Part shown: piece by piece, positions 11,051 to 56,334 of the stretch
How the letters are laid out: every line of letters starts with the position of its first letter
How positions within the stretch are numbered: the stretch's first letter is position 1
Origin: a virus
Taxonomy: Duplodnaviria > Heunggongvirae > Uroviricota > Caudoviricetes
Reading direction: 5' to 3' (one strand)
IMG/VR virus record: IMGVR_UViG_3300026549_000001
Span: 122,569 to 186,568 of that record
Length of the DNA stretch: 64,000 nucleotides
The notes under the pieces: model-generated
Database searches by the model: none
What the model was told of the DNA's origin: nothing
The model's input: only the letters and a program-made list of their open reading frames with translations
Position numbers and translations under genes: made by a program

Positions 11051-11359
11051 TGAGCTTAATACAAAGTCATATAGTTTTTCAACAGTAGAAATATCAATAT
11101 TTACACCATCTACGGTTACACAACCTTCAGTATACTTTGTACCAAATTCTAAATCCCACAACCAATATTTAATGGTTTCAGCATCCCCCTCATTAATTCC
11201 ATCACAAAGCAAGTTTACAAGAGAATCTACTAAACGGGAATGATGTGGGTTAGAACCCAAAAAGATACTACCATCAGATAGTTCATAAAGTCTATCTTCA
11301 TACTCGGTATATTCTTTCAAACTTTCAATTGCATTAATAAAATTCTTTCTACTAATCAT
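11036..11359 (-). CDS. hypothetical protein
   Basis: ORF track; 4-bp overlap with the upstream ATPase. Confidence 0.6.
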   Translation of the reverse strand: MISRKNFINAIESLKEYTEYEDRLYELSDGSIFLGSNPHHSRLVDSLVNLLCDGINEGDAETIKYWLWDLEFGTKYTEGCVTVDGVNIDISTVEKLYDFVLSSLTNE

Positions 11360-13635
11360 TTTTCTTTTTTCCTTCCAAATTTATCATAATCCCAATCTTT
11401 TACAATACATCTATCTAATAAAGATTGGTCTTTCATCATTTTTTCTACTTCAACTGCAATATTTAAATCTTGGTCAATAATGGCTAAAAGCCTTTTTGTG
11501 ACTTCATCATCAAAAATTAAATATTGAGTATCAACAACATAACCATTATCATTTTTAATAAGTGTTTGTGATAATATAAGATTAAGGTTAATAATTAAAT
11601 CATAAGATAAGTTTCTATCATTGTCTAAATGATATAAAAGTCTTGATATAGTACCCCCAACATCTCCTGCGTGGAAGGATGACATAACGCTGTGTCCTGT
11701 TCTTGCGGCTTCGATGGCGGCACAAATAACTTCTTTATCACGACACTCACCAACAATAATCATATTGGGGTGTTCACGCAACGCCGCCTTTATACCTAAT
11801 GCAAAACTCTTAAAATCCTTTATCAATTCCTTTTGTGCTATTTTTACTGTTGGAGTATTAGAAAACTCATTTTCAATAGGGTCTTCTAATGTGATAATTA
11901 CTTTATTATCAAGTACATCTTCGGGCTGTGTAAATGTATTAATACACGCCGCCATAGTAGTTGAATTATGCGTAGGAATATATGAACTTGTGCATAAGAA
12001 AGAATGTGTTGGAGAATCAACAGACAGGCAATAATAATCTTTACTATATCCTGTTATTTCTTGTATATCTTCTATATAAAAGAGAGTATGACTCCTTTGT
12101 TGATTAACTTCAGAATATATTATATTTTCCAATGCTTTTCTTTTTCGAGGAACACATAAAGGCAACATAAATATCGGAGTTAATCTCAATCTATATACTT
12201 TTTGACATTCTTCAATAGTTTCATCTGTATTTTTATATTTACCTATCTTTTCAGTAATAGGAGAACACTTAATTCCTAAAGAACAGGCTATTTCCCTCAC
12301 AGTTTCAATTGCCTGTTTATTTATAAGTTGAATATCAATATGTCCATTTTTATTAACATATCCATCGGTATCAATAAGCCCAGATAATAGCTCCATCTTA
12401 TCTAATGGAGATGCCATCTTGTATATATCAGGAATATGTTTATTATTTTTTACGAGAGAAAATGCGGGTACATTATAATTATGAATACACATATTATGAC
12501 TATTATCAAAAACACAGGATTTTTTATTATAATCTAATGCACATCTATCAAATAGTTCTGTGTCTGTTCCCCATATAGAAGATATATCTGAAAAACCATT
12601 TCCTATCCAAGCTCCTAACCAATAAGGTTTTATGGGTAAAGGAGTATATTTGTATTGACAAGGTTTTGGTCGAGATATGGCAAAGTTTGGTTTTTGTTTA
12701 ATAGAATGTACCCCTATATCTACTAATTGTTGTGTAGATAGCACCTTGACACAATTTTCTTTTTTATTATGTTTACTATTCAAACACTCAACTATCCATA
12801 AATGCCCCGCCCCCGATTTTATTTTTGTACCATCTGAAAATGTTAATTCGTAAAATTTAGTTTCAGGAGGATTATACTTTGCTATTACTTTTGTAGGCTG
12901 TCCATTTATATCAAAAAGGATTTCTCCTACTTCTATATCCTTTAATGGTTTATTTCCGCTTGTCGTTGGAATAATGGTTTCTTTGTAAAGCTCTTTACCG
13001 CTTCCAGTTACTCCTGTGAATAAAGTTATTCCTGAACGCATACTTACAGCTTCATGTAAAGCATTCTCACATTGTTTGGAATAATTGATAGAATCGAATG
13101 TGGGTTTATTAGGTCTAATCATACGAAAAGTACATTGATTCTGGTCTTGTGAAAAACCAAAAGAAGCACGATATTTGTATGAGTTGGATTCATATTTTCC
13201 AAAGAAAGGACTATCTTCAGGAATTCTTACTGTAACAGAAACATCTAATAATTTTTCTCTTACATAATCTTGATTGTATTCTTTCTTTACATTTAATTCG
13301 TAAAAATTACTCCAAGTAATTTTGTTAATGGGAGAACACGGAAGTTGTGTGATTTTACCATAACGAGAAATGTAAGGTCTTTCGGTTACTTTAATATATA
13401 AATCGGAACAATTGTGTTCAGTACACCATACCAAACATTCCTCAACAGTTCGTGTTTGTTTGTAAAAATATTCCCTTATATCATCAGCTAAATTAAGGGA
13501 AAGCGCATCCTCTTGTGGATTATTTTCTACAACTTGATTTTCTGATGTTTGGGCTTCTAATGGCTCATTTTCAATAGGTGTTTGTGGTAATGTAAATCTG
13601 AATCCACTCATTTTTATTTTATCACTTCCCCTCAT
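11356..13635 (-). CDS. PilT/DotB-like secretion ATPase interrupted by an intein
   Basis: Walker A GVTGSGK|STT split by the intein; LEDPIE Asp box, ALREHPNMIIVGECRD Walker B, ARTGHSVMSSFHA His box. Confidence 0.88.
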   Translation of the reverse strand: MRGSDKIKMSGFRFTLPQTPIENEPLEAQTSENQVVENNPQEDALSLNLADDIREYFYKQTRTVEECLVWCTEHNCSDLYIKVTERPYISRYGKITQLPCSPINKITWSNFYELNVKKEYNQDYVREKLLDVSVTVRIPEDSPFFGKYESNSYKYRASFGFSQDQNQCTFRMIRPNKPTFDSINYSKQCENALHEAVSMRSGITLFTGVTGSGKELYKETIIPTTSGNKPLKDIEVGEILFDINGQPTKVIAKYNPPETKFYELTFSDGTKIKSGAGHLWIVECLNSKHNKKENCVKVLSTQQLVDIGVHSIKQKPNFAISRPKPCQYKYTPLPIKPYWLGAWIGNGFSDISSIWGTDTELFDRCALDYNKKSCVFDNSHNMCIHNYNVPAFSLVKNNKHIPDIYKMASPLDKMELLSGLIDTDGYVNKNGHIDIQLINKQAIETVREIACSLGIKCSPITEKIGKYKNTDETIEECQKVYRLRLTPIFMLPLCVPRKRKALENIIYSEVNQQRSHTLFYIEDIQEITGYSKDYYCLSVDSPTHSFLCTSSYIPTHNSTTMAACINTFTQPEDVLDNKVIITLEDPIENEFSNTPTVKIAQKELIKDFKSFALGIKAALREHPNMIIVGECRDKEVICAAIEAARTGHSVMSSFHAGDVGGTISRLLYHLDNDRNLSYDLIINLNLILSQTLIKNDNGYVVDTQYLIFDDEVTKRLLAIIDQDLNIAVEVEKMMKDQSLLDRCIVKDWDYDKFGRKKEK
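11965..12993 (-). mobile_element. 343-aa intein with LAGLIDADG homing endonuclease (class-3 WCT signature, Glu at position 1)
   Basis: Starts ELYKETIIPT; block B GAGHLW; blocks C/E YWLGAWIGNG and LSGLIDTDG; block F YYCLSVDSPTHSF; ends IPTHN followed by Ser+1. Confidence 0.88.
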
Positions 13636-13645
13636 TCATTATTTT

Positions 13646-14026
13646 TTAACAGGTGGCTACATTTTCATACTTTATTTCTGAAACAGCAAAGTACCAATAA
13701 TCTCCATGATTGTATATTTTATCCCACCATTCATCAAGATTGGTTGTGGCGGCGGGAACTAAAAATTCAGTATATTCAGTTCCCTTGTTAGCATTAAGAA
13801 CTTCTTTTTTCCAATACTCAACTTCTTCTTTAAATTCTTCCTCTGTTAAAAGAGGATAACCACCTTCAATACTCGGATATTCTTGAATGAAATATTCTGC
13901 TATATCTGCAAAAATATTTCCATCATGATACCCTTCTTCACAATGATTGTATGTTAAGTAGAACTCATAGCATTTAAATAGTTTCTCTTTGGGGCGCATA
14001 TCTACATATACTCTCATAGCACACAC
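13646..14026 (-). CDS. hypothetical acidic protein
   Basis: ORF track. Confidence 0.55.
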   Translation of the reverse strand: MCAMRVYVDMRPKEKLFKCYEFYLTYNHCEEGYHDGNIFADIAEYFIQEYPSIEGGYPLLTEEEFKEEVEYWKKEVLNANKGTEYTEFLVPAATTNLDEWWDKIYNHGDYWYFAVSEIKYENVATC

Positions 14027-14032
14027 CTCAAA

Positions 14033-15163
14033 TTAAACATTGTCTAATATATTGTGTAATTCCTCTGTATATATATTAAACAAGTCAGATGTTTCACACA
14101 TAGCAATAACTAATATCAATGCTTTTTGTATATCTTCCTTTGTTGATATTCTGCGTTGAAAAGATAATTCAGAAGATGCATCATCATCCGCTTTTGCAGA
14201 AAAATAGAACATATAGTAGTCATCTTCAGGATTTTCCTGTTTAATGGATATAAACTTACAAGGACTCATAGTATCAGTATATCGTGTCCAAATTGTAATA
14301 TCAGGAATATCTGTACTGTTTTCTACTGCGTTTAGATAATGGGAATTATCATTAAACCTAACAACAAAATCTTTATGTATAAGAGTTTCACAATTTTTAC
14401 GAGACTGTAACCATTGTTCTTTTGTAGTTGAAGTTAAATGTTCTACTAATTCAACAGTAAACTTTTCTAACAAACTATCATTTGAACCTACCGCCATGCA
14501 TTTTTTATTGTTAATACGGAATACTTCTTTTTCTACTGTGCCAACTTCAAAATTATCATCGGGTATTCCAAGCTCTTTTGAAAATTCTTCTCGAATTTGC
14601 TTATGCTTCTCTGCAAACTCCGCTTTGGAGTATAGAGGCTCTTCAAAAGGCAATGTGTTGTATTCCGCACCTCCATCATTACCGTTTTTAGGGGCATCAA
14701 ATCTTGATAACAATTCAATTGCGGCATTATAGGTTTGAACTGCTTGTGTTAAGCTACATTGAAGGGTGGGAGCATATCCCGCAAAAAACCTTGCTTCATC
14801 TATACCACCAATAGCAACTCTCTTAAATCTTGTTTCAAATTCGTCAGGATGTTCGTCACGATATTTATACCATTTTTTTGTTGCTTCGGCTATCTTCTCT
14901 CCGTACTTTTCTTCAAAAGCGTCTTTGTGGAGCTTTTCAGCCCAAGTATCTTTTACTACTCGAATAGATGACGATGAGAATTGATGGTTTTCATCAAGCG
15001 TAAATATTCCTTTTTTGTAGAATTCTGCGGCATCTCTCGCCATATTTCTAATAAATAGTGGAGTACAATTATATGTACCATCACCATTATCAGTAAAATA
15101 ACGGCTGTCTATATTTCCTTTTGGAAGTGTTACAGGACGATATAAGCTATCTATAAAATTCAT
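14033..15163 (-). CDS. hypothetical protein (376 aa)
   Basis: Long ORF with GGAGAG RBS; no motif recognised. Confidence 0.7.
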   Translation of the reverse strand: MNFIDSLYRPVTLPKGNIDSRYFTDNGDGTYNCTPLFIRNMARDAAEFYKKGIFTLDENHQFSSSSIRVVKDTWAEKLHKDAFEEKYGEKIAEATKKWYKYRDEHPDEFETRFKRVAIGGIDEARFFAGYAPTLQCSLTQAVQTYNAAIELLSRFDAPKNGNDGGAEYNTLPFEEPLYSKAEFAEKHKQIREEFSKELGIPDDNFEVGTVEKEVFRINNKKCMAVGSNDSLLEKFTVELVEHLTSTTKEQWLQSRKNCETLIHKDFVVRFNDNSHYLNAVENSTDIPDITIWTRYTDTMSPCKFISIKQENPEDDYYMFYFSAKADDDASSELSFQRRISTKEDIQKALILVIAMCETSDLFNIYTEELHNILDNV

Positions 15164-15203
15164 TGGCTCTCCTTGAATATATTACTTATCATCAATTACT
15201 TAA

Positions 15204-16511
15204 TTATTGTAAATCCTCTCCAATAGCGGGTGAGAATATACCTGTGCCACTATCTCCAACAATAGAACCTTGATTTTGTTGAAAAGATAATGGAAATTGC
15301 AAAGCGGCAAAATGTTCATACTTTCTCGGTTTTCTGTGAATATAATTATCTAAAAAGTCAGCCGCTTGAGTCAAACTTTTACTTGCAAGAATATCTCTAT
15401 CTTTACAGTCAGCAAATAATCTTGCTACTCTTGTTTTTAATTCCTCTCTGTCATTTCCTGTAACTAAAATAGAACAGTTAAATTGACAGAAAGTTTCTCC
15501 TTTTTCAATCTCTCCTAATGCGTATGATGCGATGGCGACAGATTCAGAAAGTTCGTCCAATGCTTCTTCCTGTGCCTGTCCGAACTCAACTGCTTGTTCC
15601 ATTTCATATTTATCTTCTGCACGAGTTCTCTTTAGCTTAATGGATGCTTCTTCCTTTTTCATACATCTTATGGTAGTTACACATCCATCATAATCCATTG
15701 GAAAATAAGCTGAATTTATTTTTAGAGGGAAATTCTTAATATCTACCATACAACCATAAGTGGATTGTTGTGGTAAATCAAAAATATCAACTCCGTCATT
15801 ATGCATCTCAAACCATCCAAAATTATCTGAAACAGTTTGTGATACTGCACCCATTATATTCTCAAAATTATTTTCATTTATAAAAGATAATTGGTCGTAA
15901 CTTATTTCATAACAAGGATATACCTTGCTTACATAAGTGTAGAATACCAATTCCCGACTTGCACGGGCGCATTTATGGCGAATTGTGCCATAAATATTTT
16001 TTTCAATATCTAATATCTTTTCTGCATTAACATTGAGATTACCCAACCCAGTTAGTCCCGCAACGGCGCGTTTGAATAGCTGTTTAGCCGTTTCAAAAAT
16101 AGAATTATCTTCAACATTTGCAATATCTGTTTGTTGAATATCTATACCCAAAATGGAATAACTCTGTGAGTCATCCCTTAAATTATAAGAAAATTCGGGT
16201 GGCATATCAAAATCTTCTCTATACATTTTGATAGTTTCCACCAAATTGCTTTTTACATCCTTTGCTCGAATAATCTTATCAATTCGCTCTATGGAAAATT
16301 CTAAATTAGGTCTTTGCCCCGCTAATCCAGACATTAAACTGGTTAATTCTCTAATAGCCCGAACTATACCTTCAGGAGAGGAGGTAGAATAGTTAGTAGT
16401 AGGCAATATATAAAAGGCAGTAATGATGCCGTTATTATATAATATGTTATCGCCAATAATTTGGAGCTTATTATCTGTCCTTGTACTAACCTGTGGTTTT
16501 GTATTTGCCAT
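15204..16511 (-). CDS. VirB4/TcpF-like protein, N-terminal half only (no Walker motifs)
   Basis: N-terminal NILYNNGIITAFYILPTTNY and C-terminal CSILVTGNDREELK...LTQAADF resemble Gram-positive VirB4 N-regions; lies directly downstream of a TcpE-like gene. Confidence 0.5.
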   Translation of the reverse strand: MANTKPQVSTRTDNKLQIIGDNILYNNGIITAFYILPTTNYSTSSPEGIVRAIRELTSLMSGLAGQRPNLEFSIERIDKIIRAKDVKSNLVETIKMYREDFDMPPEFSYNLRDDSQSYSILGIDIQQTDIANVEDNSIFETAKQLFKRAVAGLTGLGNLNVNAEKILDIEKNIYGTIRHKCARASRELVFYTYVSKVYPCYEISYDQLSFINENNFENIMGAVSQTVSDNFGWFEMHNDGVDIFDLPQQSTYGCMVDIKNFPLKINSAYFPMDYDGCVTTIRCMKKEEASIKLKRTRAEDKYEMEQAVEFGQAQEEALDELSESVAIASYALGEIEKGETFCQFNCSILVTGNDREELKTRVARLFADCKDRDILASKSLTQAADFLDNYIHRKPRKYEHFAALQFPLSFQQNQGSIVGDSGTGIFSPAIGEDLQ

Positions 16512-16534
16512 TATACATTAACCTCCCTTCATAA

Positions 16535-16942
16535 TTAAAATGATTGCTTTATAACTGCTTTAATTTTCACATTTGTAAATGCAAAATTTCTTTTTCTCAT
16601 ATCAAAATGATTGGTATATACTTTCTTTGGCTTAAAATAGGCTATTAGATACTGATATAATCTATATCCCGAAAACTGAACAGCCCACATTGCATATCCT
16701 ACGCCAATACCTAATACCAACCAAAGTAGCATATATTTCCAATTCCACGCCGTACCAAGTGGATTGAACATATTTATCTTTAAAAACGCGGCAAGGATTC
16801 CACCAAAAGCAATTATAGCAAAAGCAATAGGTACAGTTACTTTTGCGAATGCTGTTGAAAATCCTCCCGCAATTCCGTAACCTCCTATTTGGTACAACTT
16901 GCGGTCACGCTTATATAATCCACTACAATTATATAACCACAT
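16535..16942 (-). CDS. TcpE/VirB3-like membrane protein
   Basis: YKRDRKLYQIG start, two TM segments, SGYRLYQYLIAYFKPKKVY tail. Confidence 0.55.
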   Translation of the reverse strand: MWLYNCSGLYKRDRKLYQIGGYGIAGGFSTAFAKVTVPIAFAIIAFGGILAAFLKINMFNPLGTAWNWKYMLLWLVLGIGVGYAMWAVQFSGYRLYQYLIAYFKPKKVYTNHFDMRKRNFAFTNVKIKAVIKQSF

Positions 16943-16960
16943 TGTTATTTTCCCTTCCTT

Positions 16961-17386
16961 TTATACTTGTTTGATGGTTAGTTTAGAATAAAAGTCATCC
17001 ACCATAGTTTTATCATATCCCGCAATAATAACCATTCTATTAGATGATACTTTTATAACTCTATTATATTCTGTAAAGTCCAATCCTTCATCATTTTTGC
17101 AAGAATAGTATATATAAGTATCTGTATTATCATATACTTCTAATATATCTTTATGGTTAGCTACAATATCCTTAAAGATATTAAACCAAGACATTTCATC
17201 TGTTATCAATATTGCGGCTACAATATTTTCATTTTTATCAAATGCAATTATTTCTTCATTTTGTTTTTGTAATTTATATCCACCATTAACTATTAGTTGT
17301 AGCTCGGATATATTATATGTTCTTTTACAACCAACAAAACTAAAAAGTATTAGTATTGATAAAAAAATTATTATATATTTTCTCAT
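16961..17386 (-). CDS. putative lipoprotein
   Basis: Signal peptide with lipobox FVGC. Confidence 0.6.
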   Translation of the reverse strand: MRKYIIIFLSILILFSFVGCKRTYNISELQLIVNGGYKLQKQNEEIIAFDKNENIVAAILITDEMSWFNIFKDIVANHKDILEVYDNTDTYIYYSCKNDEGLDFTEYNRVIKVSSNRMVIIAGYDKTMVDDFYSKLTIKQV

Positions 17387-17406
17387 TATAATAAATTCCC
17401 TTCTAT

Positions 17407-18360
17407 TTAGTCAATTCGAGATAAACTATTGCCTGAACGAATTGCATTAATACAATATAGATTGCAAATATCTATATCAGCTTGACGAAGTGCAATTCCC
17501 CATTCCGAAGCAATACATAGCCAAGTGTAGCAATAATCTTCTATATTGACATCTGGTAGCCAATCTGCGGGAGCTTTATCTCCCTTACTCCTATTGGATT
17601 TATACCAAACATCTACGCCTATATTTTGTGAATAAGCATATTCGTTACACTTTTCATTAGACCATTCTTCTATTTCCCCATATTTGTAAACATATCCTAA
17701 TGCTATAATATGGTCGAAATCTAATTTAGTTTCAGCATCTACTGTTAATCCTGTATATGGGCAATGATAATTAAATGGTTCTTCACTTACAAGATATTCA
17801 CTTGTAACCCAAGCGTAATCGTGCCTATTGTATTTCCTACCATTATACTCGTAAGTATGTGTTGGTTTTTCAAATACTTCTCTATCATATCCACTTCTTG
17901 CTTTACCGCTTGATACTCTTATAGAGGCTATAAGTGTATTTAGTTCTTCTATTGTTGATATACTTTGCGTATTAGGTGTGCCTATTGGTTGTTCCGTATT
18001 TACAGGTTGTTCCGTTTCTATTGGAGTATCTGTAATTTCAGGAGATGTAGTATCAATGGGCGTAATGGTTGGAGTTTCAATAGGAGCAGTCGGATTTTCA
18101 GTATGTGTGTCTGTTTCTATGGGTGTAGAAGTTTCTATTGGTTTATCTGTTTCCTCGGCACTTACTATAATAGAGCCTGTATTTCCACCAATAGGTAAAC
18201 TTATATTTATGCCTAATTTTTCTGCAAGCGGCATAAACACTTCAACGGGATTTTTAAATTGAATATCGGTGGCAAACTGTTTTATAGTTGTACCGCCTAA
18301 ATATAAAATCCCCATAAAAATCAGACAAATAATAATCCATCCGATTAATTTGCGTATCAT
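17407..18360 (-). CDS. membrane-anchored DUF1524/GmrSD-C type HNH nuclease
   Basis: N-terminal TM, Pro/Thr/Glu-rich linker, then CPYTG, DFDHIIAL, SNRSKGDKAPADWLP, YCYTW. Confidence 0.8.
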   Translation of the reverse strand: MIRKLIGWIIICLIFMGILYLGGTTIKQFATDIQFKNPVEVFMPLAEKLGINISLPIGGNTGSIIVSAEETDKPIETSTPIETDTHTENPTAPIETPTITPIDTTSPEITDTPIETEQPVNTEQPIGTPNTQSISTIEELNTLIASIRVSSGKARSGYDREVFEKPTHTYEYNGRKYNRHDYAWVTSEYLVSEEPFNYHCPYTGLTVDAETKLDFDHIIALGYVYKYGEIEEWSNEKCNEYAYSQNIGVDVWYKSNRSKGDKAPADWLPDVNIEDYCYTWLCIASEWGIALRQADIDICNLYCINAIRSGNSLSRID

Positions 18361-19983: not shown

Positions 19984-21207
19984 TTAAAAAATAAGATTTA
20001 CCCGAAATGGGTTCATTACTAACCCTATATCTGCTGGCTTTATAGCATCACAGAATACTTTTTTCATAATCTGATATGCGGCATTGACATCTGCATTTAT
20101 CAGCTTTCCACCATTCGACTTAAACAACCCTCGTTTAACTCGTCTACTAATATTATAATCTTCTTTAATTGGTAATTCATTATCTAAAAAACTTGTTCCC
20201 GAAGTATAACTTTCTTCTGTAAGAATCATTTCAATTCCAACTTCTTGACATTTGTATGCAAGTTTTTGAATAAATAAATTGTAAGGAATTTGAACAAAAT
20301 TTTTTAATCTACTATTTTGTTTTTGACCATCATTTTTACCAACTACAATAGCTGTAATTCCAAGAGCTAAACACTTTTCTACTATGTATTTACTGGCTTT
20401 ATCTATGAAATGTTTTACTTTATCATTTCTTTTATTCGTAATAGAATAAAGTAAGTGACTATATCCATAATTACCATTTTTATCTAATTCTGATTTTGTT
20501 TGAGCAATTAGCTTGTTGTAATATTGATTACAAGATTTAAGACCTTTACCATTGATGATAATTGGTTTATTTCCTAAATTATCAACAAAAGTTACGAAGT
20601 TATCTAAACCCAAATCTATACTGCCAACAAAACCATTTTCTTTAACAAAATCAGGAATATTAATTGTATAAATTAATTCAACTATAATTCTATCATTCCT
20701 CGGAACAACCCTACACTGATTAAATTGAACCAATCCATCATCGTAAATAAACTGTGGTTGAATAGTAAATCCTTTCATAGATTTTGGAAAATGTACTAAA
20801 TTATCATTTTTAAGTCTAACTTGTTGAGTCGTTAAAGCAAATTCAGTTAATCCATCTTTCTTGAGATACTTGGGCAGTTTTGGCATTCCCGTATACTTAT
20901 GGGGATTTTTCTTCCAATCTTTAATAATAGCAAAAAATGATTTCCAGTTTTTATCTAATCTACGAAGAACTTGCTGACCCGAATTAGCTAAATTCCATTC
21001 CCAATAATCTGGATAGTCTGTGTTATTTTTAACTAACTTTTCAACTTCAATATAGCGTAGCCATTTACCGTTTTTAGTAAATTCTTGACGAATGAGATAA
21101 TTACCATGATTATAGATATTTTTAGCGATATGACATTTTTCTTCAAGCATTTTATACCATTTGGATTGTCTATTTATGATATGCTGTTCTGTTCTTCGTA
21201 CTAACAT
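19984..21207 (-). mobile_element. tnpB: standalone TnpB (IS200/IS605 superfamily, IS1341-like, no TnpA)
   Basis: RuvC-I SIDLGLDN, RuvC-II TEESYTS, RuvC-III INADVNAAYQI all intact; LPKYLKK and WKSFF motifs; strong RBS AAAGGAGG. Confidence 0.92.
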
Positions 21208-44831: not shown

Positions 44832-46340
44832 CTATGCCGCTGTCATTAATGTTTCATCTTTTAATAATAAATATACACACCTATCATATAGTGCATCAAA
44901 TTCTTTTTTAGACAATGTTCCTTTGATTACATAAAAGCAATCATATACATTGATAACTTTAACCCCTCGTTGTTGTAATTCCCAAAGCATAAGGATATAT
45001 AGATTACTCTCATACATAAATATATGCCTACTATACAATTTTTCAAGGTTGAACAGTTTTTTCATTGTAGCTTTAACTGTTTCTAATAAATATTTTATAC
45101 CACAATTTAAGGCGTTTGTCAACCTATTATAAAAGGCAACCATATCTGCATCTTTACCACAGCGGAAATAAGACCATTTCTTTTTTATTTCATACATCTT
45201 AATAGCATAACTTGTTCCCCATTCTCTCATTGTGATAGGCATAAACAATAACTTAAAATCTTTACGAATGTCTGAAAAAGACACAGTTGTATCAAAGTTA
45301 CAATGTTTAAATACTACTTCATATATATCGTCAGTATGATTAAAACATCGTTTATTTCCTAAAGCATAATGTAATCTATAAATTGCGGCATTAACATCAA
45401 ATCCCACTATCTCTCTACTTGTCTTAAAGGCTGTTTGTATGTCTTGCAACCTCGTGCTATCAAGATGTTTTTCTGATTTGCCATTACATAAAGTATTGGT
45501 TAAACGGCGAGAACCTTCATCAATATATCTGTGATTAAAGCCATAACCATTAATCTGTTTTAGTAAATCTATATAGGGTTGACTGATTTGTTTATATTCT
45601 TCCAAATCAATCAATATTCGGTGTTCTCTGCGTTCTCTTTTAGAAATAGCATTCTTCCGCTTTTCAGAATTAATAGCAGTAAGCTGTTCATCATCTCTGT
45701 TGATGACTAATCTAAAATCTGCAAGCATTTCTGCCTTTACTCTTAAAAATTTTCCTATCGTTCCTGTTCCAATAGGATTACGCCGTGATATACCAAATTC
45801 TTCTGCAAAAAATCTCTTTATAATATCATTATCTTCTATTATAGGATTATAGTAATTGTGAACTATTCCGTGCTTTTCATAATTTGTACGGGTTCTTTTC
45901 CCACTTACTTTCTCTACATATCCTTTATTTATCAATCGAGAGATACTACCTTTAACTTGGTCTCTCGAACACCCTAAAAATAGAGCGATTTCTAAAAAGT
46001 CTGTATCTACCATTACTTCTTCATTTGATGATTGTTTTAGTAGATATGCTTTTTTCCCAAGAAGATATTCATAAACTCCTTCATCGTAATTGGTATACTT
46101 GCTATTCTTGCGGCTTCTTAAAATGCTTTCATATTCCCATACATCAAAAAAGTTTCCCTGTTTATTGTAATGACTTGCTCCATAGGATATTCTGTCTATT
46201 TTTCTTCCCATACAGGATGCAGACTTATACCATCGTATTGTTAAATCCCATTTTGGGAAATACACTTCTTCATAATATACATTCTTTTCACTTGTATATT
46301 GACTTGTTACTTCAAATGCTAAATCATCTATTAAAGGCAT
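44832..46340 (-). CDS. wHTH plus divergent PolA-superfamily palm protein; candidate replication initiator or primase-polymerase
   Basis: wHTH-like IALFLGCSRDQVKGSISRLINKGYV; motif A-like VGFDVNAAIYR; motif B-like RKDFK; motif C-like NVYDCF; adjacent to the AT-rich repeat region. Confidence 0.5.
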   Translation of the reverse strand: MPLIDDLAFEVTSQYTSEKNVYYEEVYFPKWDLTIRWYKSASCMGRKIDRISYGASHYNKQGNFFDVWEYESILRSRKNSKYTNYDEGVYEYLLGKKAYLLKQSSNEEVMVDTDFLEIALFLGCSRDQVKGSISRLINKGYVEKVSGKRTRTNYEKHGIVHNYYNPIIEDNDIIKRFFAEEFGISRRNPIGTGTIGKFLRVKAEMLADFRLVINRDDEQLTAINSEKRKNAISKRERREHRILIDLEEYKQISQPYIDLLKQINGYGFNHRYIDEGSRRLTNTLCNGKSEKHLDSTRLQDIQTAFKTSREIVGFDVNAAIYRLHYALGNKRCFNHTDDIYEVVFKHCNFDTTVSFSDIRKDFKLLFMPITMREWGTSYAIKMYEIKKKWSYFRCGKDADMVAFYNRLTNALNCGIKYLLETVKATMKKLFNLEKLYSRHIFMYESNLYILMLWELQQRGVKVINVYDCFYVIKGTLSKKEFDALYDRCVYLLLKDETLMTAA

Positions 46341-47121
46341 CTATTCATTCCTTCCTAATTATAATTTATAGAGATAGTCCCCCCTATAGGAACGGGAGAA
46401 CTTTCTATCATTATTAAATAGGCTAAATTTATTATATCACATCTTCCATCAATTGTAAATACCTATACCAAGAATTTTTCAAACATCTCCCCCCTATTAT
46501 TGGGGTACTATATATAATAATATCTATTATGTAACTAATGAATAAGAAGAAAAAGAATGATTATAAAGAATGAGAAAGAATAATGATGTAGCAGATGAAT
46601 AATAATGTTAAAAGCATAATATGAAGAATGTATAATAAATAATAATATGGAAAGAGAATGTATAAATAACTATTCGGGAGAAAATGACATATTTTCGCTA
46701 CAATGTTCACAAGTTTAACATAAATGACACAACTTTGACATAGTTTACATAGATACATAGAAAAAATGTATATAAATAAAGGAAAAAGAATTCCCCCCTT
46801 TTATTGGTATAGTATAATAACAACAATAATAAATTATAACTATTACCAATGACCGAGCATAGCAAGGGCATTGAACATCATAAATTGAGCTTATGAACGA
46901 AGTGAATATGACAATTGTGATGTTATAATAATATAATATAAGAATATTATGTGTAGAATTTTTTGCAAATTAGCTTTTTTTCTATTTCTTTTTGTAGTTT
47001 AATGAAAAAATATAAAAGAAACATTAAAAAATATATTTTTTAAAAAACTTGTATAACTGTTGCATTGTTCTTTAAAATAAACTATAATAGTTATATCTTA
47101 TAAGGAAAGGATGCTTTAATT
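46341..47121. other. putative replication origin / divergent control region
   Basis: About 780 bp non-coding and very AT-rich; two copies of the CCAATAAWAGGGGGG motif; A-rich AATGA/AATAAT tract; gene orientation switches here; promoters TTTACA-17-TATAAT (minus, 46431-46459) and TTGCAT-17-TATAAT (plus, 47060-47088). Confidence 0.5.
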
Positions 47122-47667
47122 ATGTTATTTGTAACTTATACTATTAACGGAGAAGATTATAATGTAGAAATAAACCAATGGGGTAGAACTGCATTTGTAT
47201 TTACTCTAAATCCTTATAGTCGTGGAGAAGAATGTTCAATACATTATAGCAATACTCCCGAAGCGTATTTCTTATATAAGGGAACGAAAGTCTATATCAA
47301 TGATTTTAAAAAGTGTTCATTTGAGGAATTTTACACTCAATTGGAAAAAGCCCGAAAGCATGAGTATGAATCTCCTATTTCTATAACACAGCTTTTTCTA
47401 CAAATGCTTCTTACGGAGGGAGTTAAGACTTTAAAGTTTTCTGTACCCCTATTTTATGACCCTCTTCTTATAGAAGTAGAAGGATATGAGACTTCTAAAT
47501 ACTGCCACATTAACGATACTATATTAAAAATTAATCTCTCTGAACATAGTTGGATAGAATTTGAAGATGATGAACCTGAAGATACTGTCATAAAGCAAAG
47601 GTCTTTCCATATTGACCGAGTTGTAGAGCATCTTCTAAAAGGAACGATTGACATTATGAAGTGTTAA
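47122..47667 (+). CDS. hypothetical protein, paralogue of 34106-34624
   Basis: See paralogue. Confidence 0.7.
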   Translation: MLFVTYTINGEDYNVEINQWGRTAFVFTLNPYSRGEECSIHYSNTPEAYFLYKGTKVYINDFKKCSFEEFYTQLEKARKHEYESPISITQLFLQMLLTEGVKTLKFSVPLFYDPLLIEVEGYETSKYCHINDTILKINLSEHSWIEFEDDEPEDTVIKQRSFHIDRVVEHLLKGTIDIMKC

Positions 47668-47685
47668 TACACTATACTTATTTAT

Positions 47686-48222
47686 TTGGGGGTTTCAAAT
47701 ATGATTCATACTATAAATAATCAAATGTATTATGTGTCTGAATATTTTCCGTTCAAAAAGGTAGATGTTCATGAGATACGAAACTTCTCTTTTTATGTTG
47801 AGGAAGATGCGGCAAACTTTTCAGAATTGCCTGTAATAGAAGAAGGTAATCGTAGGAAGTTTTGGCTACCCTCCGAGGAACAGTATATTTATCTTGATGA
47901 TTTTGATAAAATTTCTATGGAGACTTTTATTGAAATGTCCAAAACAATGGTTTGTGGATATAACAGTGATTTCATCATTAAAGAAATATTCAGACAAATG
48001 TTGTATACCGAACGGGAAAGCAACCTTGTTATTTATGTAACAAATGGAATATTAAACCCTAAAACAAAATCTAATGATTATATAAGATGTAAAATCAATA
48101 AGTTTGATAAGTATAATGTATCGTTGACTGAAATTAAAAATCAAGAAAAACACTCAATACCGATTGGCGAAATGTCTATATATTTTGTAATCGGAGCGGT
48201 GATGTTTGTCGAAAGAGTATAA
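47686..48222 (+). CDS. hypothetical protein, distant paralogue of 47122-47667
   Basis: YLDDFDKISMETF vs YINDFKKCSFEEF; FRQMLYTE vs FLQMLLTE. Confidence 0.65.
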   Translation: MGVSNMIHTINNQMYYVSEYFPFKKVDVHEIRNFSFYVEEDAANFSELPVIEEGNRRKFWLPSEEQYIYLDDFDKISMETFIEMSKTMVCGYNSDFIIKEIFRQMLYTERESNLVIYVTNGILNPKTKSNDYIRCKINKFDKYNVSLTEIKNQEKHSIPIGEMSIYFVIGAVMFVERV

Positions 48223-48229
48223 ACAATAA

Positions 48230-48676
48230 TTGTTGAGAAGAAAGGACAAGACAAGATATATGTTAGGCTACAATATGCAATTTTTTAAATTTTTCAAATC
48301 TCTTGGCAAGCTACAAGAGTCATTTAATACTATGGTAAAACTTCCGTGTAGACTTAAAGTTGATGCTAATATCACTATTTGTGGTAGCGGCGACTTTTCA
48401 AATTTACATGACTACACATCCAACAGACAAGGATTAAATGCTTTGGCAGAAAAAATAACCCAAACTTCTGTTATTACAGAAGTAAATAATTTACTTCGAC
48501 ATCATCATGATAAATATAAGTGCGATGCAAGTGTACCAAAGGAAGTATGGGAACATCTAATGTTTGTTGCAGATGATACAGCCGATGATTATTCAAAATA
48601 TACTTGCGCTTTTTACATGAATACAGATATACTCGTAAAAATTGAGATAGCTATGTATCTGAAAAATTGTATGTGA
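48230..48676 (+). CDS. hypothetical protein
   Basis: ORF track. Confidence 0.55.
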   Translation: MLRRKDKTRYMLGYNMQFFKFFKSLGKLQESFNTMVKLPCRLKVDANITICGSGDFSNLHDYTSNRQGLNALAEKITQTSVITEVNNLLRHHHDKYKCDASVPKEVWEHLMFVADDTADDYSKYTCAFYMNTDILVKIEIAMYLKNCM

Positions 48677-48685
48677 GGATAACTT

Positions 48686-48961
48686 ATGTATTATATTTGT
48701 TATGATGTGAAATATTATGAAAAGTGGAAGGAAAGAATTGGTGAAATAGAAGCCCTAATGCAAGCTAAAAATATTGACTATAAGTTAGTGGCTGTGATGG
48801 AAAAAGACTTTAAAGGCGTATATGCCCCAGTTGATGATTCACACAATCCTTATTTTGTGTTTTGTACGCCTGTGCCTCCATGTGTAATAAAGCACGATTA
48901 TCAATACTACTATTATGATATATTTGCGTTTGAACATAAACTTAAAACGGGGAATCTATAA
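48686..48961 (+). CDS. hypothetical protein
   Basis: ORF track, RBS GAGG. Confidence 0.55.
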   Translation: MYYICYDVKYYEKWKERIGEIEALMQAKNIDYKLVAVMEKDFKGVYAPVDDSHNPYFVFCTPVPPCVIKHDYQYYYYDIFAFEHKLKTGNL

Positions 48962-49663
48962 ATGAGAATAATTGATACTAACTATGACTATTATGATTAT
49001 TTATCCTATCAATATGTAGATAATACTTTTACTTTTGATAGGAGAGATTCTTATGTATTATCAAAAGAAGTTTTTTGTGAAAAGCTATCTGCTTCTTTTA
49101 ACGCTTTCAAAAGAGCCTTTAATGTAGGAGATTATGTTTTTCTCAAACTACAAATATGTCATACATTTTGGTTGTTCTTGGTAGAAATAACAGAACAGCC
49201 ATATAATAGACAAATTAGTAATTATGACATTACTCTTATTGCTTCTTGGAAAAATTATAATAGTAATAGAACATTGTTATCTTTAGAAACCATTACTTTT
49301 CCGTTCTTTACACTTTATAATATTCAAAGGCGGGGCGGTAAGGAAAATATACTGACTGATAAAAATGTATCAGAATTTATTGAATTAGTAAATAGTTCAA
49401 AATATGAACAGTTAAAATCTTTTAACTATTTTGAAATACGAAATGGTGATTATTCTAAAACTATAAAAACACTACCACTATTAGGAATGTGTGGTATTCA
49501 AGAGATTATCCCCGCACAAGATGTTTACCAATCTCTTGAAGAATATTTTTCGTTAGAACAGCAATCAGCAGAACGCAGAGAATCAGTAGGGCTAACCGAT
49601 AAGGATAAAATCATAAATCATGGTTTTGACATTACAACATCTTTTAGAACTAAAAAGGAGTAA
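48962..49663 (+). CDS. hypothetical protein (MRIIxxxxDYYD type)
   Basis: ORF track; ends KIINHGFDITTSFR. Confidence 0.65.
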   Translation: MRIIDTNYDYYDYLSYQYVDNTFTFDRRDSYVLSKEVFCEKLSASFNAFKRAFNVGDYVFLKLQICHTFWLFLVEITEQPYNRQISNYDITLIASWKNYNSNRTLLSLETITFPFFTLYNIQRRGGKENILTDKNVSEFIELVNSSKYEQLKSFNYFEIRNGDYSKTIKTLPLLGMCGIQEIIPAQDVYQSLEEYFSLEQQSAERRESVGLTDKDKIINHGFDITTSFRTKKE

Positions 49664-49668
49664 AGTGT

Positions 49669-50046
49669 ATGAATGAAGTAACCTTTAAATATCAAACTAC
49701 CGTTGGGATAAAAAAGTCCATTATGAATTCATTATCTATTGAAGGAAAAGCGTGGATATTGAGACAATTAGGAAATGTGATGGGGACAGACCTTCCTTGT
49801 CTTGGTGTTTGGTCTGACAGCAATCATTATTTGTTTACAACTATACTTTCAGACCGCAAAACTTTTACATATATTCCAAAAGAATGTGTAGAAACTAATT
49901 TACTTATGTGGATGGCTCGAATTATATACAATGAAAAGTTTGCACCCCAATATGATAAATTATTTACAATATGTGGAGTTACAGTAGAGGCAATTTTATA
50001 TAGTGATGGCAATGAAAAATCATTATTTAAATTTGACTTAATTTAA
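49669..50046 (+). CDS. hypothetical protein, tandem paralogue of 50065-50436
   Basis: MARIIYNEKFAPQYDKLFTI vs YARLLYKQRFADRYNKMFEI. Confidence 0.6.
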   Translation: MNEVTFKYQTTVGIKKSIMNSLSIEGKAWILRQLGNVMGTDLPCLGVWSDSNHYLFTTILSDRKTFTYIPKECVETNLLMWMARIIYNEKFAPQYDKLFTICGVTVEAILYSDGNEKSLFKFDLI

Positions 50047-50064
50047 CATAAGGGAGGTAATGTT

Positions 50065-50436
50065 ATGTGTAATCTATCTATTAAATTTAGCACCCATGTA
50101 TTCTTAAAGAAAGAAGATATGCCTTATGAAGAAGATTGTATGGACTACACTCTTCACTTTATTAATGGGCTTGTTGGAAGAAATAACAATGAATGGAAAC
50201 TAACTGTAAACCAAAGTAAATATGTAAACATCTATACAGATAGATATGCCATTTATAATTTGCCTGATAAATGTGCCAATTTATCTTATCTTACGAAGTA
50301 TGCTCGACTTTTGTATAAACAGAGGTTTGCAGACAGATATAATAAGATGTTTGAGATAGGATGTGTTTTGGCAAGTATAACTTGTGACAATGACAATGAA
50401 CCCATAATATCTTGTTTAGTACAAATACAACCATAA
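50065..50436 (+). CDS. hypothetical protein, tandem paralogue of 49669-50046
   Basis: See paralogue. Confidence 0.6.
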   Translation: MCNLSIKFSTHVFLKKEDMPYEEDCMDYTLHFINGLVGRNNNEWKLTVNQSKYVNIYTDRYAIYNLPDKCANLSYLTKYARLLYKQRFADRYNKMFEIGCVLASITCDNDNEPIISCLVQIQP

Positions 50437-50438
50437 AA

Positions 50439-50467
50439 AAGAGGGATAGACTAAATCTATCCCTCTT
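50439..50467. terminator. terminator hairpin at the convergent junction
   Basis: AAGAGGGATAGA...TCTATCCCTCTT. Confidence 0.75.
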
Positions 50468-50606
50468 AATATATTAATACCTTTTATTATATGGTCGTAG
50501 CTTTCAAATTAGCCCGCTGTACGGTTCTTTATGTTAAGGTAATATAAAGTCATACCCAAATAAATTAAACGCCATACAGCCCAAATTTGAGCGTTTTAGG
50601 GGCATA

Positions 50607-55989: not shown

Positions 55990-56334
55990 TTAATTTAATA
56001 GTAAAGTTATTGTAGTAGTTATGACTACCATAAATGGAACTTTTTCTCTTGTTAAGAGAATTATTCCTATAATAAGAGGAACTATTAAGGTGTATATAGT
56101 ACCCTCTGTTATTATTAAAAATATCATCATTGGAAAAAATACTAAATCAATGTGTATTTTTTCATATAAAGCAAATCCAAATAAAATGATAGTTAATATG
56201 CAAATATGAGTTGGAAAAAAAGGTAATAGAATTATTGTATATATACTTATAAGATAAATTGGTACACTATTATATAGTAAATCTTGATATGCAATATATA
56301 ATCCTAATATACCAATTATCCAATTAATAGGCAT
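55990..56334 (-). CDS. minimal A24-like prepilin peptidase
   Basis: All-hydrophobic; first Asp motif AYQDLLYNSVP, second Asp in IHIDL, C-terminal KVPF. Confidence 0.5.
   Translation of the reverse strand: MPINWIIGILGLYIAYQDLLYNSVPIYLISIYTIILLPFFPTHICILTIILFGFALYEKIHIDLVFFPMMIFLIITEGTIYTLIVPLIIGIILLTREKVPFMVVITTTITLLLN

Follow-up and report, generated by a model that had tools for sequence, protein, structure and literature searches.

The window analysed here (64,000 nucleotides of DNA, bases 122569-186568 of the single 250,568-bp IMG/VR record IMGVR_UViG_3300026549_000001) carries on its minus strand a block of seven genes, three of which can be assigned to the base of a type IV secretion system (T4SS): a gene for a TcpE/VirB3-like membrane protein, a gene for the N-terminal domain of a VirB4 protein (VirB4-N) and a gene for an ATPase of the PilT/DotB type that is interrupted by an intein (Table 1). 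The ATPase domain of the same VirB4 is encoded by a separate gene 88 kb from VirB4-N and outside the window, so that the VirB4 of this element is split into two polypeptides. Since the ends of the record overlap by 128 bp, it is regarded as a circular assembly. A preliminary description of the window had read all seven genes as one pilus/conjugation-like module, an observation that is confirmed in part. The conjugation part is borne out by the trio, the distant VirB4 half and a VirD4-like protein, whereas the pilus part is not, as neither PilC nor an A24 peptidase was detected in the elements searched, and only three of the seven genes are conserved together. The interpretation offered with it, a hybrid or phage-repurposed element, is likewise supported in part.

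That the 435-amino acid (aa) protein is the N-terminal half of a VirB4, as proposed in the preliminary description, is established by its predicted fold and by a fused homologue and not by direct matches to hidden Markov models (HMMs). No Pfam or NCBIfam model, including those for VirB4, CagE and TcpF, matched VirB4-N, a sequence search of the PDB returned no match, and one orthologue (P0003) reached the CagE_TrbE_VirB model at E 9e-4, which is below the cut-off. The AlphaFold2 model (predicted local distance difference test, pLDDT, 80.5; predicted template modelling score 0.80) was, by contrast, unambiguous in Foldseek: the twelve best matches were all TrwK/VirB4 structures of plasmid R388 (E 8e-12 to 3e-10, probability 1.0, TM-score 0.52-0.54), and the first match listed that was not TrwK/VirB4 had an E value of 0.1. 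Searched exhaustively with HMMER, 1.84 billion representatives yielded only 50 relatives of VirB4-N, most of them stand-alone proteins of 414-460 aa. One relative of 781 aa (P0046) is a fused homologue with an AAA_10 domain in its C-terminal half. Its residues 4-423 correspond to residues 14-432 of VirB4-N, and its residues 430-781 correspond to residues 4-30 and 389-722 of the distant VirB4 ATPase half (34% identity, E 4e-49). By this alignment the split is a clean fission in the inter-domain linker, without intein tags, because the two genes tile on the fused homologue with only about 6 linker residues left over between them. A split intein at the junction was considered and rejected: the tail of the N-terminal half and the head of the C-terminal half align to the fused linker residue for residue, and no room remains for tags. 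The fused form was encountered only in this distant homologue, which stems from Logan contigs; it was not found in IMG/VR or in JGI metagenomes, and the set of divergent homologues searched against IMG/VR gave nothing.

The VirB4 ATPase half (genome positions 47568-49745, minus strand, 725 aa) begins about 30 residues ahead of the Walker A motif and is recognised by the AAA_10 model with 103 bits and by the TcpF model at E 2e-13. It contains a LAGLIDADG intein of its own, inserted between GSGK and T. Because five relatives and a metagenome-assembled genome (MAG) have no intein in the ATPase half, this insertion looks like a recent invasion, as does that of the DotB/PilT-type ATPase. All five relatives encode the VirB4 ATPase domain as a stand-alone, intein-less gene of 369-404 aa with varying neighbours, at a distance of 75-221 kb from the N-terminal half. 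An unsplit, ordinary VirB4 of 774 aa was also seen (L032:9511-11835, in a genome of the MAG's order), with a weak match to the N-half profile (E 5e-7) and no obvious PilT-sized open reading frame (ORF) nearby, so the sampled order of the MAG holds an unsplit VirB4 as well.

The assignment of the third gene of the trio as a PilT/DotB-like ATPase is fully confirmed by a T2SSE (PF00437) match of 109 bits against a cut-off of 24.9; the orthologues score 116-123 bits. Among the NCBIfam models PilT scored highest (142 bits), followed by TraJ (120), DotB (114), ComGA (102) and VirB11 (37). These scores, which the intein lowers, are all below the cut-offs, the equivalog thresholds being 463 for DotB (TIGR02524), 368 for TraJ (TIGR02525), 319 for PilT (TIGR01420) and 250 for VirB11. 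In structural databases the protein is closest to DotB: the best PDB match of the C-extein was DotB (6gef, 1.7e-24), followed by PilT, and an intein-less orthologue matched DotB (6geb) over nearly its full length with 124 bits and PilT with 112 bits, with no match to VirB11; the N-extein by itself found nothing in the PDB sequence search. Plasmid-borne matches were DotB of a Legionella plasmid (31% identity over 87% of the length), TraJ (28%) and PilT (31%). Identities of 28-31% argue for a subfamily separate from the DotB, TraJ and PilT equivalogs.

The intein of this ATPase, which the preliminary description did not mention, can be placed at residues 215-557 because all six of six intein-less orthologues align contiguously up to residue 214 and from residue 558 on. 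Matches to Hom_end and LAGLIDADG_3 sit in the middle of the protein, and matches to 'terminase' PHROGs were rejected as they cover the intein part only. After removal of the intein the exteins retain an intact Walker A motif (GSGK joined to ST), the Asp box EDPIE, the Walker B motif GECRD and the His box (TGH..H). The first intein residue is a Glu directly after GSGK, not Cys, Ser or Ala, and the intein ends in THN before Ser.

The TcpE/VirB3-like assignment of the preliminary description stands at the level of the family, while the window copy itself remains below the PF12648 cut-off (21.2 bits, E 4e-4, cut-off 29.9), as do four orthologues (17-24 bits). PF12648 was matched at E<=0.01 by 31 of 36 family members, the best at 2e-8, and a precomputed PF12648 annotation exists for 15 of the 118 clusters (90% identity) into which the family falls; these are found on contigs of up to 515 kb. 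The protein has two transmembrane (TM) helices (about residues 35-53 and 70-88), and its gene lies directly upstream of VirB4-N in seven elements. Foldseek with the predicted model (pLDDT 65) returned generic TM hairpins only. TcpE is the probable VirB3 equivalent and is encoded just upstream of tcpF (2025 review, PMC12857230).

The trio is contiguous in five IMG/VR relatives of 174-394 kb, in two of which (L015 and L016) its genes abut or overlap, and a 'Bacilli bacterium' MAG has it too, on a contig of 6 kb. The flanking genes vary among the elements. Judged by gene order, the conserved core of the block consists of these three genes only. All four T4SS genes, the trio and the VirB4 ATPase half, are under strong purifying selection: for the closest pair of elements the ratio of nonsynonymous to synonymous substitution rates (dN/dS) was 0.089 for the N-terminal half of VirB4, 0.077 for its C-terminal half, 0.054 for the DotB/PilT-type ATPase and 0.11 for the TcpE-like protein, at dS values of 0.45-1.0. 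In at least seven elements neither the ORFs nor the catalytic motifs are disrupted. The MAG (R95_purified_bin52), a bin of 2.3 Mb, has the trio on one short contig and the VirB4 ATPase half on another (27% GC), and sampled genomes of its order measure 0.8-1.3 Mb; this hints at a Bacilli host with a small genome or at mis-binning.

Table 1. Features of the block and of one more distant gene; positions are those of the window.
Feature	Position	Strand	Remarks
Membrane-anchored protein, 317 aa	17407-18360	-	Thr/Pro-rich linker, possible HNH-type nuclease domain; accessory
Predicted lipoprotein, 141 aa	16961-17386	-	Signal peptide and Cys lipobox; accessory
TcpE/VirB3-like protein, 135 aa	16535-16942	-	First gene of the conserved trio
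VirB4 N-terminal domain, 435 aa	15204-16511	-	Assigned by fold and fused homologue; no TM helix, no Walker motifs
ORF of 376 aa	14033-15163	-	Function not assigned; between VirB4-N and ATPase
Acidic ORF of 126 aa	13646-14026	-	Function not assigned; with the 376-aa ORF between VirB4-N and ATPase
PilT/DotB-type ATPase with intein, 759 aa	11356-13635	-	T2SSE PF00437
ATPase N-extein, residues 1-214	12994-13635	-	Ends at Walker A (GSGK); aligns with intein-less orthologues, where it is contiguous with the C-extein
LAGLIDADG intein, 343 aa	11965-12993	-	Hom_end and LAGLIDADG_3; inserted in Walker A between GSGK and S
ATPase C-extein	11356-11964	-	Asp box EDPIE, Walker B GECRD, His box TGH...H
4-TM protein, 114 aa (formerly 'A24-like')	55990-56334	-	Not part of the system

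The other four genes of the block are accessory. Gaps between the genes of the block are 6-40 nt, and the stop codon of the ATPase gene is overlapped by the next gene. The 376-aa ORF lies inside the trio only in this element, with homologues located elsewhere in four relatives; it has no match in Pfam, PHROG or NCBIfam, and an Atlas structure search gave nothing usable. For the 126-aa ORF neither a family match in these three collections nor a counterpart at the relatives' loci was found. The lipoprotein named in the preliminary description does have a signal peptide, ending in FVGC with the lipobox Cys, and a single N-terminal hydrophobic helix, but it is not a conserved neighbour, since no orthologue lies beside the trio at the relatives' loci. 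The protein called a surface nuclease has an N-terminal TM helix and the linker and matches phrog_15511 at 2e-6, whereas support for a nuclease is weak: HNH_4 is matched only by the orthologue in one relative (L012, E 0.0017), and the domain found no PDB sequence match. This orthologue is the only one at the five relatives' loci, and it lies about 4 kb upstream without abutting the trio. An intact TnpB gene (OrfB_IS605 and Cas12f TNB domain) occupies window positions 19984-21207 (minus strand), about 1.6 kb upstream of the block, and a second copy lies at genome positions 63787-65013.

The replicon provides further candidates for a conjugation machine. A VirD4-like protein with N-terminal TM helices matches TrwB_AAD_bind with 26.4 bits (cut-off 20.5); VirD4 is among the genes that the preliminary description had proposed to look for, and the relaxase, terminase and capsid families searched gave no match in this element. 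Wall hydrolases (NlpC/P60, Phage_lysozyme2), three giant membrane proteins with 6-8 TM helices as VirB6-like candidates and SpaA/TQ adhesins are encoded as well, and together with the VirB4 ATPase half these genes agree with the conjugative megaplasmid that the preliminary description had offered as one option. One adhesin of 1994 aa with TQ/SpaA domains (genome 29318-35302) has a sortase sorting signal at its end, made up of PQTG, a hydrophobic helix and the tail KKGKKE, and a 281-aa ORF (genome 94997-95842) has a sortase-type TLQTC (TLxTC) motif; these two features point to a walled monoderm host. The window has a mean GC content of about 31%, and all 38 ORFs of at least 400 aa are on the minus strand. 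The sole run of plus-strand genes in the window is at about 46000-50500, where the GC skew flips sign, and an adjoining gene encodes a 502-aa protein with weak matches to replication-initiator PHROGs; this region may be the replication origin. A blastn search with the block against phage and plasmid collections gave no match, and counts in a promoter and terminator scan were at chance level.

Taken together, we consider it probable that the trio is the T4SS base operon of a monoderm (Tcp/Tn916-like) type on a giant, circular, conjugative plasmid-like element, in which the two VirB4 halves rejoin. In this model, which rests on analogy with solved systems, the TcpE-like protein, as VirB3 equivalent, would reside in the membrane and bind VirB4-N. 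The VirB4 ATPase domain from the gene 88 kb away would re-associate non-covalently with the N-terminal domain and rebuild the VirB4 motor. The DotB/PilT-type ATPase, presumably a hexamer, would dock under the VirB4 ring in the way DotB does in Dot/Icm and TrwD/VirB11 in R388; docking of DotB/VirB11 under the VirB4 hexamer has been described (PMC12857230). With the VirD4-like coupling protein this would yield a three-ATPase motor for DNA transfer. Before becoming active in the present element, the VirB4 ATPase half and the DotB-type ATPase would each have to splice a LAGLIDADG intein from the Walker A motif. Physical re-assembly, docking and conjugative DNA transfer are what we infer.

Several known systems share parts of this arrangement. 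In the T4SSs of pCW3 (Tcp), Tn916 and ICEBs1 a TcpE-family protein with two TM helices is likewise encoded directly upstream of VirB4 (TcpE-TcpF, Orf17-Orf16; ConC/OrfE in ICEBs1/ICESt3), the VirB4 ATPase half of the present element matches the TcpF model, and wall hydrolases, large polytopic VirB6-like candidates and surface proteins of the sortase type again mark a monoderm setting. Unlike in these systems, VirB4 here consists of two genes 88 kb apart, and neither a MOBT nor another relaxase was found. With Dot/Icm and the IncI (R64) type IVB systems the element shares an ATPase closest to DotB/TraJ and a layout of three ATPases (VirB4, VirD4, DotB-type); the scores, however, are far below the DotB and TraJ cut-offs (114 vs 463 and 120 vs 368), and those systems are diderm, have outer-membrane complexes and possess an unsplit VirB4 (DotO). 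The R388 structures of TrwK/VirB4, TrwM/VirB3 and TrwD/VirB11 (7o42, 8rtb, 8rtd) provide the TrwK N-terminal domain to which the VirB4-N model fits; there a central VirB4 subunit supports VirB3 (TrwM), and VirB11 is located under the central VirB4 hexamer (PMC12857230). Differences to R388 are a sequence identity of only 12-15%, an ATPase of the PilT/DotB branch and not of the VirB11 one (37 vs 250 bits), and the separation of the N- and C-terminal domains into individual polypeptides. That a monoderm transfer region can include an ATPase of the T2SSE family has a precedent in the tra region of pAW63, pXO2 and pBT9727 (Bacillus cereus group; Gram-positive conjugative plasmids), where the excerpted published description annotates a VirB11-type ATPase of type II/type IV secretion systems besides VirB4 and VirD4 (PMC1196294). 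By that description, on which the comparison is based, the ATPase of pAW63 (CDS 22) is not adjacent to VirB4 (CDS 9), unlike here, and a split of VirB4 is not mentioned in the excerpt.

A parallel for the replicon as a whole, compared by published features only, is provided by the conjugative Hodor megaplasmids of the human gut, which are 211-389 kb in size, lack TerL, have Bacillota hosts and are misfiled in virus databases (PMC12934698). Common to both are VirB4, VirD4, a divergent VirB6, sortases, surface modules, TnpB and Phage_lysozyme2, and in both a standard relaxase is hard to find. Three relatives of the present element (G001-G003, e.g. G003:C1:146542-146631) have ORFs of roughly 310 aa with sub-threshold TraI_2 matches (MOBH, HD-type); these ORFs are possible relaxase candidates comparable to the MOBH-like gene of Hodors. 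Hodors differ in their GC content of 45-47% and in Rep_3/ParAB, and their publication reports no VirB4 split and mentions neither PilT, VirB11, RNA polymerase nor tRNAs, whereas the GC content of the window is about 31% and the present element brings its own RNA polymerase pieces, PolA, gyrase, 18 tRNAs and many inteins.

Some observations speak against a conjugative plasmid-like element with a rejoined VirB4. No relaxase of the MOBP, MOBT, MOBV or MOBQ families (PF03432, PF02486, PF01076, PF03389) was found, and for MOBH (PF07514, TraI_2) there was no match in this element and only sub-threshold ones in the three relatives mentioned. The atypical Glu at the start of the ATPase intein puts its splicing, and hence the activity of the ATPase in this element, in some doubt. 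The re-association of the VirB4 halves and their contact with the DotB-type ATPase are steps that we infer. Finally, IMG/VR classes the element and its five relatives as viruses, and the record carries pieces of a multisubunit RNA polymerase, PolA, gyrase and 18 tRNA genes; very divergent virion genes, or virion genes in ORFs below 400 aa, could have escaped our searches. These last points would be explained if the element were a true jumbo phage with virion genes too divergent for recognition and a repurposed trio that might, for instance, deliver DNA, serve spread from cell to cell or control superinfection. CheckV completeness of 73-100% for the six elements, nearly unidirectional genes, the many inteins and a phage-style gene set (split PolA, DnaB, gyrase, NrdD, split RNA polymerase beta and beta' pieces, the RNA ligase Rnl, a Pnk-like AAA_33+HD gene, DUF932 and TnpB) are in agreement with such a phage, and Rnl, a Pnk-like gene and DUF932, noted as jumbo-phage-type context in the preliminary description, are indeed present. 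We nevertheless regard a phage as unlikely. Six-frame searches of five to six elements for Terminase_6N/6C, TerL_ATPase, Terminase_3, HK97 capsid, portal and tail sheath (PF03237, PF17289, PF03354, PF04466, PF05065, PF04860, PF04984) gave no match while control genomes were positive, no virion family was found by PHROG searches among ten large unassigned ORFs (>=392 aa), and the 'terminase' PHROG matches fall on intein parts. Moreover, the Hodors document that TerL-less giant plasmids are misfiled as huge phages (PMC12934698). The same results disfavour the phage-plasmid and the phage-repurposed machine of the preliminary description.

It is very improbable that the ATPase belongs to a machine for type IV pili or for filaments of the competence type. 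PilT is the top NCBIfam score and ComGA also scores, and an A24-like prepilin peptidase had been reported in the preliminary description. This 114-aa protein, however, matched nothing in Pfam or NCBIfam (E<=0.1 and 0.05), has only a first-Asp-like stretch (QDLLYNSVP) without a second motif of the GxGD type, and is encoded 38 kb away among nucleases and kinases, between a PD-(D/E)XK nuclease and a guanylate-kinase-like gene. Neither T2SSF/PilC (PF00482) nor A24 (PF01478) was matched in the five elements searched, with positive controls in 13 of 14 and 12 of 14 genomes, and a pilus is therefore not assumed. No relative has the ATPase apart from TcpE and VirB4-N, DotB is its best structural-sequence match, and it is the only T2SSE ATPase in each of six elements; this gene content ties it to the T4SS and disfavours a pilus. 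A different division of labour, in which VirB4-N has been uncoupled from its own ATPase half and now recruits the adjacent DotB/PilT-type ATPase as main motor, with another role for the C-terminal half, appears about as improbable as a phage. It would fit the constant adjacency and frequent translational coupling of VirB4-N and the DotB-type ATPase and the always distant C-terminal half with its varying neighbours, but none of the relatives has lost that half or its Walker A and B motifs, its divergence is on a par with that of the N-terminal half (dN 0.036 vs 0.041 for the same pair), which fits a continued partnership, and the break falls precisely within the inter-domain linker without any loss of sequence. 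Decay of a conjugation system, with the split VirB4 and the adjoining genes as its non-functional remnants, is hardly credible: the undetected relaxase and, in this element, the inteins in the P-loops of the ATPases would agree with decay, whereas the strong purifying selection on four genes (dN/dS 0.05-0.11), the intact ORFs and motifs and the number and spread of TcpE-like clusters do not.

The T4SS base operon on a conjugative plasmid-like element thus remains our favoured reading. A wider one, which we advance only tentatively and hold to be rather doubtful, is that these giant elements (170-515 kb), which lack TerL and belong to AT-rich Bacilli, form an undescribed, widespread clade with transcription and replication genes of its own that moves by a rewired monoderm T4SS, in which VirB4-N would be a free-standing membrane scaffold docking both VirB4 ATPase and DotB-type hexamers. 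If so, no earlier case would exist of either a naturally split VirB4 or a DotB-type motor within a conjugation machine of the Gram-positive type, and in the present element the machine would also be gated by intein splicing at both P-loops. In the titles and abstracts of the papers listed we found no report of a split VirB4, and no paper in the literature searched had TcpE, PilT and VirB4 together. VirB4 is found in every T4SS and is used for classifying them, and a conserved natural split may offer a ready-made means of studying the cooperation of its scaffold domain with its motor domain. In a system of the monoderm type, a firm link of a DotB/PilT-type ATPase with VirB3 and VirB4-N would conflict with the textbook view of Gram-positive T4SSs without VirB11-type motors. 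The element adds to the evidence that some 'huge phages' of the virus databases are in reality giant conjugative plasmids, which alters the way gene flow in gut and rumen communities is counted.

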